Source of the DNA: Escherichia coli
GTDB lineage: Bacteria; Pseudomonadota; Gammaproteobacteria; Enterobacterales; Enterobacteriaceae
Reading direction: 5' to 3' (one strand)
DNA length: 64,000 nt
NCBI RefSeq assembly: GCF_030013205.1
Contig: NZ_CP122648.1
The position numbers are program-made. Positions within the stretch are counted from its first letter, which is position 1. Each line of letters begins with the position of its first letter. Positions 1 through 3,000 of the stretch are shown here, one piece after another.

Positions 1-3000
1 TTGTTTGTGAGTACGACCATCCTGCACACACATCAGGCGAATTTCGTTTGCCCATGCTGTCCAGTTCGGTTCTTTGGGACGAACCACCTCGCCGTCACAT
101 TCGGCGGCCTGCTCGTACAGGGCGATGATTTTTTTCCAGAGCCACTGTGCGCAGGTCAAATCATCCTGCGTTCCCCACTGGCGCTTTTTAGGGCTGAATA
201 CAACCGCATCAGGATGGCGAGTTAAAAACTCCTGTTCAGCCGTTTGCGTGTCCGGTTGCGAAGCGTCCGGACGAGAAGAGGTTTTATTCTCTGTAGTAAT
301 CTCTGTTGTATTCTCTGTAAGATCATTGGGCCATTTTGACCCGATGACAGCGTGTCGTTTTGAACCAATGGATCGTGTCATTTTGCGCCCATCCATCAGG
401 TCACTTTGACCCGATGGAGAAGTGCATTTTGACCTGATGGATTCGTTCACTTTGACCTCTTCTAAAAGCTCACTTTCATAGTTGATCGTGTAGAAGTTGG
501 TCATGTCACGCTTCGATTTATTGAGTTGCTCGCGACGCAAAACCCCAAGTGATTTCAGGCTTGCAAATGTGCGTTTCAGAGTGGACTCTGACCAGAACGG
601 AAACTGCTCCAGCCACTGTTCTGTCGTGTTATAAACCCAGCGAATTCCGCCATGCTCAGTGCCTGAATTCGTTTCATTCAGCCAGTAATGAAGCTGCTGC
701 AACACAATTGCCTCATTCAGACCAATACGGCATGCAAGATCACGATTTATCACAATGGGCTGGGATGTCATTAACAGGCTCATGACCGACCTCTATTTCC
801 CTGAATTTACGACGAAACTGTTCGAGCGGACTGAAGCATTCATGTTCATAGCCTTCACGGAGGTAGATAACCCGTTGTGTTTCCGGCTCCCAACGAATGA
901 CTCTGACGGGCACTCCGTAGTGATCTTTGAACCAGCGGTTAACTTGTCGCAAAGGACTGTCTCCTTCTGCCGGTTGAAATCACCCACAGCCCACTCTGCA
1001 AAGCTGTGGGTTACAATTTCCCTGTCACCTGGTACATTCACTGCATAGCAATACTCCACCTTCGCTTTTCCACCCGGTACAGGAAGCGCAATCAGTTGCG
1101 AGCGACGGTAGTGTGTTGTTAAACTGTTCATGCGTTAGTTTCTCCACAACCAGAAGCAATCGACGCCACGACGCCCGGAGCTGCACACTCGCGGGCGTTA
1201 CTCTTTTCCGGCGCACAAAAAACACGAAATAACAGTGTTAAATGCTCCTGCCACTTCGCCATTACTTGGTAGCTGTTCTCTTCGATTTGCTCACGCTCAG
1301 CCTGGTCAATAACTCCATCAGCAGTTGCCTTGCGTAAGTACTGGGAATGCTTGCCAATCCATTCTATTGACTCCATCAGCCGCTGATTAATGTCACCATT
1401 GTCAATGTCATCAATGACCACCAGCGGCACAAACACCCCATTACTACGACGGGCTATTGCATCTGTTACATGCCTGGTACCACTGGCATCCTGTAAAACC
1501 ATGGCCCACTCAAGTGGAAAAATTTGATCCCCACCGCTACGCAGTCTGTTATGCAATTGATCTTTTGCTGGGGTGATATCATCAGATTTATACAAACCAA
1601 GAATTTCTGCTGCTTCCTCATAGCCATGAGGTAAATCAGCAATCGTTCTTCGTATTGCTGCCACCAGCCATGCTGGTTGTTTATCAACTTTCCATTCAGG
1701 TTCTTTACCCACGGTTAATTCCTCATTTCTGTGGTGTTTTTATGCCGCAGCACTGTTAGTCTTTTGATATAAAGACACGTCAACTTTCAGTTTCCCGTTA
1801 GTAATTTTTTCTAACTGGTACGCTCGGCCTTCAGGAATAATCTCAGGCCACTCTGAAACAGACGGATGCTTAATACCTAGGGCTTCGGCGGTTTTACAAA
1901 CTCCGCCGAAATAATTAATCACGTCGGATTTCCGCATTTCTGTCTCCCGTTAAATTACGTCAAGCAGGAATGTAGGATATCCAACATGCCAATGTCAAGA
2001 ATCCTACATTGGCATGTGGTAGGATTGCCTACATGATGAACATGAGTGATCGTATTCGCCAAAGGCGAAAAGAACTGAACCTGACACAACAAGCACTGGC
2101 TGATTTGACTGGTGTGAACCGTGTCACGGTTACTGGATGGGAAAAGGACGACTACCAACCAAATGGAGCCAACCTTCAAGCCCTAGCCAACGCACTTAAA
2201 TGCGATCCTCTGTGGCTTGTTAGCGGAAAAGGCTCGCCTGAACCAAAGATAAATCTAAAACCTGAAATATTCGCAGTTAAAAAAGTCCCCCTCATCTCGT
2301 GGGTTCAGGCGGGTTCATGGACAATGACGGAGCCTGGTGTCAGGAAAGAAGATGCTGAAGAGTGGGTTTATACTACCGCCCTTGTATCAGAAATGGCATT
2401 TGCACTACGGGTCCGTGGTGATTCAATGACCAATCCCCTCGGCTCACCATCGATACCAGAAGGTTCTATCGTTATCGTAGAGCCAGATATTATTGATACA
2501 GAGTGTATTAACGGAAAAATCGTTGTTGCCCATATCAATGGTGGGCAAGAAGCGACACTCAAAAAATTTGTTGAGGACTGGCCGAACAGGTATCTCGTCC
2601 CACTAAATCCTAACTATAAAACTATTGAATGCGGTGAGAACTGCAGAATAGTTGGTCTTGTCAAACAAGTAATAATGGATTTTTGACACATCTTCCTCAC
2701 TATCGCAAAACCGGGGTATCCCCGGTTTTTTTATGAGCCTATCTTTTTATGTAGGATAACCAACATAAACTCTTGACACCTACATGTTGGATATCCTACA
2801 TTTGTTTTTAGAGTTGTGGTGAATGCGCAGGCTGATGCGCGAAAGACATTGCAGCTATTGCGGAAAAGAGCTGTTCGGCGGGGCAATTAAACGCCCGTGA
2901 GAGTCTGAAATAACCGCAAGCCGGAGATCAGCACCGGTCACCACAACAGCCACTGCTTTGGCGGTACCAGTTTGTACACTTGCTTCCGGCTGGTACCGCT

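Follow-up and report, generated by a model that had tools for sequence, protein, structure and literature searches.

Two described systems frame the locus studied here. One is the phage λ switch, in which a tripartite OR lies between the divergent cI and cro genes and OL and PL lie across cI, a layout that our locus shares. The other is the Stx1-converting phage Lys8385Vzw (MT225100), a complete 51-kb phage that was recovered by mitomycin C (0.5 μg/mL) induction and then plaque-purified, and whose prophage likewise lies in dusA. Its repressor (QIW91713.1) is 100% identical at the amino acid level, over 217 aa, to the product of the cI gene analysed in this work; all five operators are identical, and DNA identity is 98.6% over 4 kb of the immunity and early region. 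In contrast to this phage, the element of E. coli strain ETEC4079 measures 32.7 kb, has a cdtI/mEp460-like backbone, and lacks stx and the head and tail genes. The same CI protein is also present in phages vB_EcoM-720R4 and SKA5 and in the Stx2c phages Stx2c_EH0430, EH0474 and JNE082796. This repressor type is already known: the gene carries an annotation, and phages known to be inducible have the identical repressor. We propose that the gene found in our window (the whole 64-kb stretch of DNA that was analysed) is very probably cI, the immunity repressor gene of a lambdoid prophage that lies within the 5' end of dusA and has a λ-type, SOS-cleavable switch whose outcome would be abortive, and that its distance from lexA is incidental.

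The cI product has an N-terminal helix-turn-helix (HTH) of the Cro/C1 type (Pfam HTH_3, 57.8 bits, residues 8-62; other matches were HTH_19, HTH_31 and HTH_26), a linker (residues ~65-82) of low pLDDT (71-79), and a C-terminal S24 self-cleavage/dimerisation domain (Peptidase_S24, 88.3 bits for a cut-off of 23.3, residues 86-210). The winged-helix domain of LexA (PF01726) was absent from it in the Pfam search; the host LexA matched it, as did another prophage protein, 108 aa long. The latter, whose gene lies outside the window in the nin region driven by PR, shares 44% identity with LexA residues 1-85; it retains the recognition helix and lacks a protease domain. The AlphaFold model of CI (pLDDT 82.6) found as its top fold match the λ repressor on the RecA filament (8gmu_A, 40% identity, TM 0.85 normalised to the target), and also matched λ CI C-terminal domain structures (TM 0.79-0.86) and the C-terminal domains of LexA and UmuD. 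In a HMMER comparison with λ CI (3bdn, E 7e-25), the motifs of the protein aligned ungapped to VQAGMF, EGNSM and TFKKL. The Ala-to-Ser spacing of 38 residues is that of λ (111 to 149), and in a 10-sequence alignment including λ CI, e14 YmfK and the host LexA the A, G, S and K residues were all invariant. The Ala-Gly site, the Ser in RGDSM and the Lys in TLKKF that an earlier note on this DNA had placed in the gene are indeed present, as A93-G94, S131 and K177. With the domain, the Ser/Lys pair and the Ala-Gly bond all found, CI can be assigned to the Peptidase S24 self-cleaving repressors (LexA, UmuD, λ CI), cleavage itself being a prediction. Sequence and modelled fold support the presence in this protein of every hallmark of a RecA-stimulated, self-cleaving lambdoid CI.

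Five 18-bp pseudo-palindromes of the TGTAGGAT type are clustered only around cI (Table 1). Three of them lie within three mismatches of ATGTAGGATATCCTACAT, when 0.01 were expected and none of 100 shuffles reached three, and they are unrelated to CTGT-N8-ACAG; the earlier view that the immunity operators are distinct from the LexA box is thus borne out. Read along the promoter direction, OR1 has the sequence of OL1; PR and PL share both the same promoter elements and identical O1 sites. The −35 of the candidate maintenance promoter is not the same in Lys8385Vzw. The hairpin just downstream of cI is likely a bidirectional terminator that separates cI from OL and PL; it was missed by the terminator scanner, which absorbed the T-run into the stem, and was found by direct folding. 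Leftwards, the CII-like gene matches phrog_101 (CII-like transcriptional activator, E 3e-62); rightwards, PL reads toward yfdP/Q/R, an exonuclease gene and the excisionase-like gene. A multipartite operator between divergent cI and cro, together with OL and an outward promoter beyond cI, gives the locus the layout of a lambdoid CI/Cro switch. We predict that CI binds the five operators, and does so cooperatively, from the way the repeats are built, from where they lie and from the fact that Lys8385Vzw has all of them unchanged. Apart from a lysine riboswitch, STnc430 and naRNA4, each of them distant from the cI locus, an Rfam search over the whole window returned nothing.

Table 1. Features of the cI locus, the right prophage end and the host lexA gene (window positions; L001 positions where stated)
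Feature	Position	Strand or direction	Details
CII-like / YmfL-family regulator, 194 aa	1128..1712	-	Downstream of cro; Pfam Phage_CP76 28.8 bits; RefSeq YmfL family
cro, 65 aa	1740..1937	-	Divergent from cI; Pfam P22_Cro 77.3 bits; phrog_409
PR-like promoter	1998..1969	-	TTGACA-18-TACATT; 10/12 match
OR1, predicted operator	1970..1987		ATGTAGGATATCCAACAT; 1 mismatch to palindrome; overlaps -10 and spacer of leftward PR
OR2, predicted operator	1992..2009		ATGTCAAGAATCCTACAT; right half-site perfect, left half degenerate; overlaps PR -35
PRM-like, candidate maintenance promoter	2009-2037	rightward	TTGGCA-17-CATGAT; weak 9/12 match
OR3, predicted operator	2017..2034		TGGTAGGATTGCCTACAT; 4 mismatches; overlaps candidate maintenance promoter and cI start codon
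cI repressor gene, 217 aa	2033..2686	+	ORF call; same as RefSeq CDS WP_000981537.1, "LexA family protein"
Ala93-Gly94 codons, predicted scissile bond	2309..2314	+	WVQAGSW; aligned with λ CI A111-G112 and LexA A84-G85
Ser131 codon, predicted nucleophile	2423..2425	+	RGDSM; aligned with λ S149 and LexA S119
Lys177 codon, predicted general base	2561..2563	+	TLKKF; aligned with λ K192 and LexA K156
Hairpin and T-run (A-run on other side)	2707..2732	+	Just 3' of cI stop; MFE -15.2 kcal/mol, z -3.83, 0/200 shuffles as stable
OL2, predicted operator	2749..2766		ATGTAGGATAACCAACAT; 2 mismatches
PL-like promoter	2773-2802	rightward	TTGACA-18-TACATT; 10/12 match
OL1, predicted operator	2784..2801		ATGTTGGATATCCTACAT; 1 mismatch; within rightward promoter PL
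Excisionase-like (PrtN family) gene	7899..8207	+	End of PL operon; Pfam PyocinActivator 81.8 bits; phrog_1300 "excisionase"
attR, displaced dusA 5' fragment	9700..9816 (L001 46572-46688)		Prophage right end; RefSeq pseudogene "tRNA-dihydrouridine synthase, missing C-terminus"
Host lexA	13730..14338	-	Outside prophage; Pfam LexA_DNA_bind and Peptidase_S24; RefSeq WP_000646078.1
Two canonical E. coli lexA SOS boxes	14347..14383	-	LexA matrix 20.2 and 20.1 bits

We propose that, following the λ paradigm, CI dimers would sit on OR1/OR2 and OL1/OL2 and silence PR and PL. Upon DNA damage, RecA-ssDNA filaments would bind the C-terminal domain of CI and stabilise its cleavable conformation, and Ser131, activated by Lys177, would cut the Ala93-Gly94 bond, so that the HTH and the dimerisation domain come apart. 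With the collapse of occupancy at the operators the early operons would fire, LexA having no direct part at the switch. Derepression by the SOS response through CI cleavage is a well-supported prediction, because the identical CI and operators are present in the mitomycin C-induced Lys8385Vzw. The cleavage, its RecA dependence and operator binding are deduced from homology and from the mitomycin C induction of this phage with the same module, an induction that alone does not prove that CI cleavage is the trigger. In ETEC4079, derepression would be expected to lead to excision and/or lysis without virions.

Why is this switch so close to lexA? A 117-bp direct repeat, 81% identical, links the right end of the prophage (9700..9816) with L001 13867-13983 at the integrase end, where the gene for a tyrosine integrase (PF00589, L001 14069-15166) adjoins the start of dusA at L001 13980; in the integrated prophage the int gene occupies the far end. 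An integrase beside the dusA 5' end and a duplicated dusA 5' segment place the element among the dusA-associated integrase elements, a family outlined by Farrugia et al. 2015 (PMC4482086). Integration at a tRNA was considered and rejected, since a tRNA scan of the window found none and the dusA site was found instead. Of 5426 complete E. coli genomes, 139 carry the identical cassette, which is also present in free phage genomes; in the two other genomes inspected there is no lexA within 20 kb of it. The earlier note had given prominence to a lexA gene some 11 kb from CI: the distance is right (11.0 kb from the end of cI), but it has no functional meaning. The nearness of cI and lexA is a coincidental by-product of the attachment site, whose dusA 5' fragment lies 3.9 kb from lexA, because the prophage sits in dusA and the same cassette occupies other sites in other genomes. 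It should not be taken as regulatory linkage.

The state of the prophage bears on what the switch can still do. Relative to phage cdtI, ~10.4 kb are missing from the alignment, comprising the 3' portion of the gene for the large terminase, the portal, protease/capsid and tail tube genes and the 5' portion of the tape measure gene, and the terminase, tape measure, yfdP, DUF551 and head-fibre genes are pseudogenes. Judged by its gene content, the ETEC4079 prophage cannot make virions, and the outcome of derepression is expected to be abortive because these morphogenesis genes are deleted. Although phage cdtI resembles the prophage in its backbone, it fails to align over cI-cro and was rejected as the donor of the immunity region. 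The deletion and the several pseudogenes would agree with cI being a fossil gene that gives superinfection immunity only, or nothing, so that DNA damage has no effect at the locus. We consider this quite unlikely, as cI, cro, the CII-like gene and the five operators are intact and match those of a viable phage exactly or almost exactly, the early genes remain, and the annotation gives Q, the holins and the endolysin as intact genes. Because the switch and these lysis functions are intact, a cleavable repressor would still free potentially lethal genes, and cI and its operators may have stayed intact because their loss of control would release lysis or excision. The switch may nevertheless have lost its phenotypic output, because the prophage is degraded.

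A further question is whether LexA, rather than CI cleavage, could connect the prophage to the SOS response. In the host lexA promoter, the box at 14368-14383 (CTGTATATACTCACAG on the gene strand) is an exact CTGT-N8-ACAG, and that at 14347-14362 (CTGTATATACACCCAG) has CCAG in place of ACAG; both are canonical lexA operators of ~20 bits each, and the former description of "two consensus LexA boxes" was slightly overstated because of this substitution. The exact motif occurs once in the 64-kb window, which is not above chance (0.55 expected, at least one in 39 of 100 shuffles); a 20-bp LexA matrix was therefore derived from 23 SOS boxes of E. coli described in the literature, a training set that includes the uvrA/ssb and lexA sites found here and does not include the boxes of the dinI-like gene described below. 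With this matrix, no LexA-like site of at least 8 bits was found in window positions 1-10801, which include the immunity region. A search of the prophage for CTGT-N8-ACAG, suggested in the earlier note, did find two exact boxes (L001 15167-15186 and 15195-15214, 21.6 and 21.0 bits), outside the window and not at the immunity switch: they lie 21.7 kb to the left of where the window begins and overlap a TTGACA promoter that serves a dinI-like gene. These two strong boxes could point to a LexA-repressed antirepressor that inactivates CI, as in coliphage 186 (Tum), Gifsy and N15, the S24 motifs then being incidental. The KilA-N domain occurs in some antirepressors, and a KilA-N protein is encoded in the nin region of the prophage; as a precedent, the Gifsy-1 antirepressor is reported (Lemire et al. 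2011) to lie within a dinI operon. However, the LexA-controlled unit carries just the 82-aa DinI-like gene, with no antirepressor ORF because convergent pseudogene fragments follow it, and the KilA-N gene, which follows cro in the PR operon, is not preceded by a LexA box, the sole match there being intragenic and of 11.1 bits. Moreover, CI retains the full S24 catalytic set, invariant among its homologues, which the repressors of antirepressor-dependent phages are not known to have. The LexA box at a lytic promoter or antirepressor that marks the class of 186 Tum, Gifsy, N15, CTXphi and GIL01 is thus not found in this prophage, and we regard such control as very unlikely. We find it scarcely credible that the ORF encodes an additional LexA-type regulator of the host, able to bind SOS boxes and functionally linked to the nearby lexA. 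It shares the S24 domain with LexA and bears the RefSeq name "LexA family protein", but its DNA-binding domain is a Cro/C1 HTH_3 akin to that of P22 c2 and not the LexA winged helix, the repeats that flank it are not LexA boxes, and it lies within the prophage boundaries and moves with phages to other loci.

Our preferred reading is accordingly that of a λ-type switch opened by CI cleavage, and the proposal that the prophage is SOS-inducible in this way, and not through LexA binding, stands in part. The hallmarks of CI, the absence of a LexA box from the immunity region and Lys8385Vzw speak in its favour; the phage is defective and LexA boxes are present elsewhere in it. "Induction" can here mean at most derepression, excision or lysis, because the element is not an intact phage. 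DNA-damaging antibiotics could derepress the defective prophage of ETEC4079, with lysis or excision and no phage transfer as the result. The RefSeq label hides a λ-type CI with a defined operator set, ATGTAGGAT.ATCCTACAT, and this immunity type is also that of Stx1 and Stx2c phages, in which the release of toxin is under the control of CI cleavage; beyond correct annotation the importance of the locus is small. A doubtful but conceivable extension is that this prophage family is wired to the SOS response at three points, namely CI, the dinI-like gene under its two LexA boxes and the 108-aa protein with only a LexA DNA-binding domain. If so, the DinI-like product could damp the co-protease activity of RecA* and set the threshold or duration of CI cleavage, and the 108-aa protein, which cannot be cleaved, could stand in for LexA and shut SOS boxes down again after lytic onset, those of the phage's own dinI among them. 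Our literature search on LexA homologues encoded by lambdoid phages gave only the GIL01/Bacillus system and unrelated papers.

How does this switch compare with those already described? Prophage e14 shares the cI-cro-ymfL gene order, and its YmfK has the same invariant A, G, S and K; it was rejected as the nearest characterised relative, being just 26% identical, and the literature found mentioning the ymfK region held no cleavage data on YmfK. The host LexA has the S24 chemistry and the four invariant residues in common with CI (25% identity), but binds CTGT-N8-ACAG via its winged helix, whereas CI has an HTH_3 domain and unrelated predicted operators. Among phage repressors, those of mEp390 (61% identical over the full length) and Yersinia phage YeP1 (65%) are encoded beside genes that differ from those here, and the N-terminal HTH is 45% identical to that of P22 c2 (TM 0.95-0.97). 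The catalytic residues are conserved throughout the P22 C2, CUS-3 cI and mEp390 repressors, which belong to other immunity groups. With λ CI (PDB 3bdn, 1f39, 2ho0, 8gmu) the protein shares the two-domain plan, at 33% identity overall and 40% in the C-terminal domain (TM 0.85). Unlike in λ, rexAB is absent between cI and OL and no N homologue was identified; the operators are 18-bp sites of the type given above, while those of λ are 17 bp long, and the λ-like layout is combined here with a P22-type cro and a YmfL-type CII-like gene.

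Our results show that the ORF at window 2033-2686 (+), RefSeq WP_000981537.1, codes for CI, the 217-aa prophage repressor, which by analogy appears to work like the λ CI protein. It is an already known protein, annotated in public phage and genome records as cI or a LexA-family repressor. CI carries an HTH_3 domain (Pfam, residues 8-62, 57.8 bits) and a Peptidase_S24 domain (residues 86-210, 88.3 bits, cut-off 23.3), and its top PDB sequence match is the full-length λ repressor 3bdn (E 7e-25), where in an ungapped alignment VQAGSW, RGDSM and TLKKF of CI stand against VQAGMF, EGNSM and TFKKL. 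A93-G94, S131 and K177 correspond to A111-G112, S149 and K192 of λ CI, and to A84-G85, S119 and K156 of LexA. The earlier note had read the Ala-Gly site and the Ser (RGDSM) and Lys (TLKKF) residues as LexA-type self-cleavage motifs, and these residues are indeed among the only 18 invariant columns when CI is aligned with its counterparts in YeP1 (65% identity), mEp390 (61%), a Klebsiella phage (51%), ZF40, CUS-3 and a Vibrio phage, and with λ CI (33%), e14 YmfK (26%) and host LexA (25%). In the AlphaFold model, whose mean pLDDT is 82.6, linker residues 71-79 are disordered; its closest PDB fold is 8gmu_A, the λ repressor bound to the RecA filament (40% identity, TM 0.85 on target), followed by other λ CI, LexA and UmuD C-terminal domains, while P22 c2 superposes on the modelled N-terminal domain with a TM of 0.95-0.97. 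CI shows all the testable features of the S24 self-cleaving repressors, and its locus those of the lambdoid CI/Cro switch; it is not a LexA proper, because it has no PF01726 domain.

The putative operator is an 18-bp pseudo-palindrome (consensus ATGTAGGAT.ATCCTACAT) with five copies, found only around cI; three sites with at most 3 mismatches were observed against 0.01 expected. The promoter scan found TTGACA-18-TACATT twice, and OR1 and OL1 are the identical 18-mer when read in the promoter direction. The candidate maintenance promoter overlaps OR3 and the cI start just as λ PRM does. In this stretch (window 2009-2044, +) the promoter's -10 ends at 2037, past the annotated cI ATG at 2033, and further in-frame ATGs lie at 2036 and 2042; like that of λ PRM, the maintenance transcript may lack a leader and begin at a later ATG. 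One base of the promoter's -35 differs in Lys8385Vzw, an Stx1 phage with an identical CI. To the right of PL follow a frameshifted yfdP, yfdQ, yfdR, small ORFs and a 3'-5' exonuclease gene. About 160 nt downstream of PL, ahead of the first early gene, a strong hairpin (window 2960-3005, +; 13-bp stem, -21.2 kcal/mol, z -4.2) is followed by TCTTTTT; it is possibly a terminator requiring antitermination, despite which no N-like gene was recognised.

Features of the cI switch, the prophage and host lexA (W, window; L, RefSeq-annotated 50 kb around the prophage, L001; window position = L001 position - 36872)
Feature	Position	Direction	Description
CII-like/YmfL gene	W 1128-1712		left of OR
cro, P22-type	W 1740-1937		left of OR; PF14549, 77 bits
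OR1	W 1970-1987		1 mismatch to consensus
OR2	W 1992-2009		5 mismatches; one half-site perfect
OR3	W 2017-2034		4 mismatches
Predicted PR	W 1998-1969	leftward	TTGACA-18-TACATT; OR1 over -10 and spacer, OR2 over -35
Candidate maintenance promoter, weaker	W 2009-2037	rightward	TTGGCA-17-CATGAT; overlaps OR3 and cI start
Predicted cI terminator	W 2707-2732		stable hairpin and T-run, between cI and OL
OL2	W 2749-2766		2 mismatches
OL1	W 2784-2801		1 mismatch
Predicted PL	W 2773-2802	rightward	TTGACA-18-TACATT; covered by OL1
PrtN-family excisionase-like gene	W 7899-8207		in rightward PL series
attR	L 46572-46688 = W 9700-9816		117-bp repeat of dusA 5' end, 81% identical; RefSeq truncated dusA pseudogene
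Host lexA	W 13730-14338	-	preceded by canonical box pair TGCTGTATATACTCACAGCA and AACTGTATATACACCCAGGG
Tyrosine integrase	L 14069-15166		PF00589; abuts dusA start
Prophage LexA box	L 15167-15186		CACTGTTTATCCATACAGTT; exact CTGT-N8-ACAG (21.6 and 21.0 bits for the two boxes)
Prophage LexA box	L 15195-15214		CACTGTATACAAACACAGTA; exact CTGT-N8-ACAG
108-aa LexA DNA-binding-domain-only protein	L 35592-35918	-	PF01726, 66.8 bits

Is the prophage induced through CI or through LexA? The identical 217-aa CI occurs in six phage records (tblastn), including Lys8385Vzw, whose immunity/early region is 98.6% identical over 4 kb with all five operators unchanged. Induction of E. coli O103:H11 RM8385 with 0.5 ug/mL mitomycin C, followed by plaque purification, yielded this phage, whose prophage site is also dusA (PMC7946995), and therefore the module belongs to a phage that answers a classic SOS inducer. 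By analogy, SOS induction via CI cleavage is plausible, a response to mitomycin C being no proof of cleavage as the trigger; no LexA-controlled antirepressor or like alternative is visible in the prophage. Direct action of LexA on the switch was addressed with a 20-bp matrix made from 23 SOS boxes of the literature. Across L001 and the window (101 kb) five matches reached at least 20 bits, namely the uvrA/ssb box, the two lexA boxes and two prophage boxes. No site of at least 8 bits was found in window 1-10801, so LexA-like sites are missing from the immunity region and from both early operons; this bears out the proposal that the immunity operators are unlike the LexA box, and the cI locus does not fall among the LexA-operated prophage switches. 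The search for CTGT-N8-ACAG that had been suggested for the prophage gives none in the switch and two beyond the window, at an accessory gene. These two boxes bracket the -35 and -10 of a TTGACA promoter, with an 82-aa DinI-family gene just downstream (region L001 15160-15476, ~21.7 kb left of the window start, adjoining the integrase gene). As for host lexA, credited earlier with two consensus boxes, the pair is present, with only TGCTGTATATACTCACAGCA an exact CTGT-N8-ACAG and AACTGTATATACACCCAGGG not, and one exact match per 64 kb is no more than chance would give.

The proximity of cI to lexA pointed out in the earlier note is real; nothing points to a functional link between the two genes, and the insertion site explains their closeness. 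Over its first 12 kb the window is 100% identical to the chromosome of E. coli ETEC4079 (NZ_CP122643.1, from 4726872). In ETEC4079 the lambdoid prophage is inserted at the 5' end of dusA (RefSeq annotation). Since 3.9 kb separate the dusA attachment site from lexA in the E. coli chromosome, every dusA lysogen brings its genes close to lexA. Of 5426 complete E. coli genomes, 139 carry the 906-bp OR-cI-OL cassette at ≥95% identity; in CE0021a and 2013C-3342 the same CI resides in prophages at other loci, with lexA absent within 20 kb. Bordered by the integrase and the dusA repeat, an arrangement described for dusA-associated integrases in PMC4482086, the prophage measures ~32.7 kb, its right-hand 9.8 kb alone being inside the window. 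Just inside attR, a two-gene cassette (window 8467-9455, -) codes for a Panacea/SocA-domain antitoxin-like protein (190 aa, PF13274) and an overlapping partner (139 aa, phrog_19071, no Pfam match), and is likely a prophage-borne toxin-antitoxin or defence module. To the right of attR, a DUF2713 gene, zur, yjbJ, dinF and lexA form normal core genome. Farther along, the core genome holds two type III effector-like genes, one for a 526-aa SopA-family/pentapeptide-repeat protein in the ubiC-malM gap (window 19170-20750, -) and espL4 in the iclR-aceK gap (window ~55640-57820, +), and a sorbose-type PTS operon is headed by an SDR-family oxidoreductase gene that IS1 splits (window ~42130-43714; L013 28002-29585).

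Judged by its gene content, the ETEC4079 prophage is defective and unable to form virions. RefSeq flags a large terminase gene without its C-terminal part and a tape-measure gene without its N-terminal part, and in BLAST against phage cdtI, which matches the backbone at 96-99% identity, cdtI 1526-11994 has no counterpart save a 75-bp scrap. This ~10.4-kb gap, located outside the window (L001 25338-26952), extends from the terminase 3' part to the tape-measure 5' part and comprises the portal, protease/capsid, decoration, tail tube and chaperone genes. Q, two holins and an M15 endolysin carry no sign of damage in the annotation. With morphogenesis genes gone and lysis genes kept, derepression is expected to switch on early transcription, perhaps leading to excision and lysis, and to yield no particles. 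We infer that cI and its operators are pristine owing to the potential lethality of the remaining genes. Further decay is annotated in the PL operon, in the yfdP frameshift (window 3144-3505, +) and a truncated DUF551 gene (window 6565-7317, +).

About 1 kb left of the window, in the nin region, a Dam-like methyltransferase gene and rusA flank the gene for the 108-aa LexA-DNA-binding-domain protein. The protein shares 44% identity with LexA residues 3-85, retains the recognition-helix motif RSxNAAxEHLxAL, and has an AGE aligned with LexA A84-G85-E86 and no S24 domain. Its family is phrog_362, and 61 phage records contain it, those of Stx2c phages and cdtI among them; our literature search found no published characterisation of it. 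This protein and the LexA-controlled dinI-like gene are the sole parts of the locus that might merit experiments. With its paired boxes the dinI-like gene is arranged like host lexA, and phage cdtI has the same module (97.7% identical). The cI switch, in turn, shares its layout with that of phage λ, but is built from different component parts.
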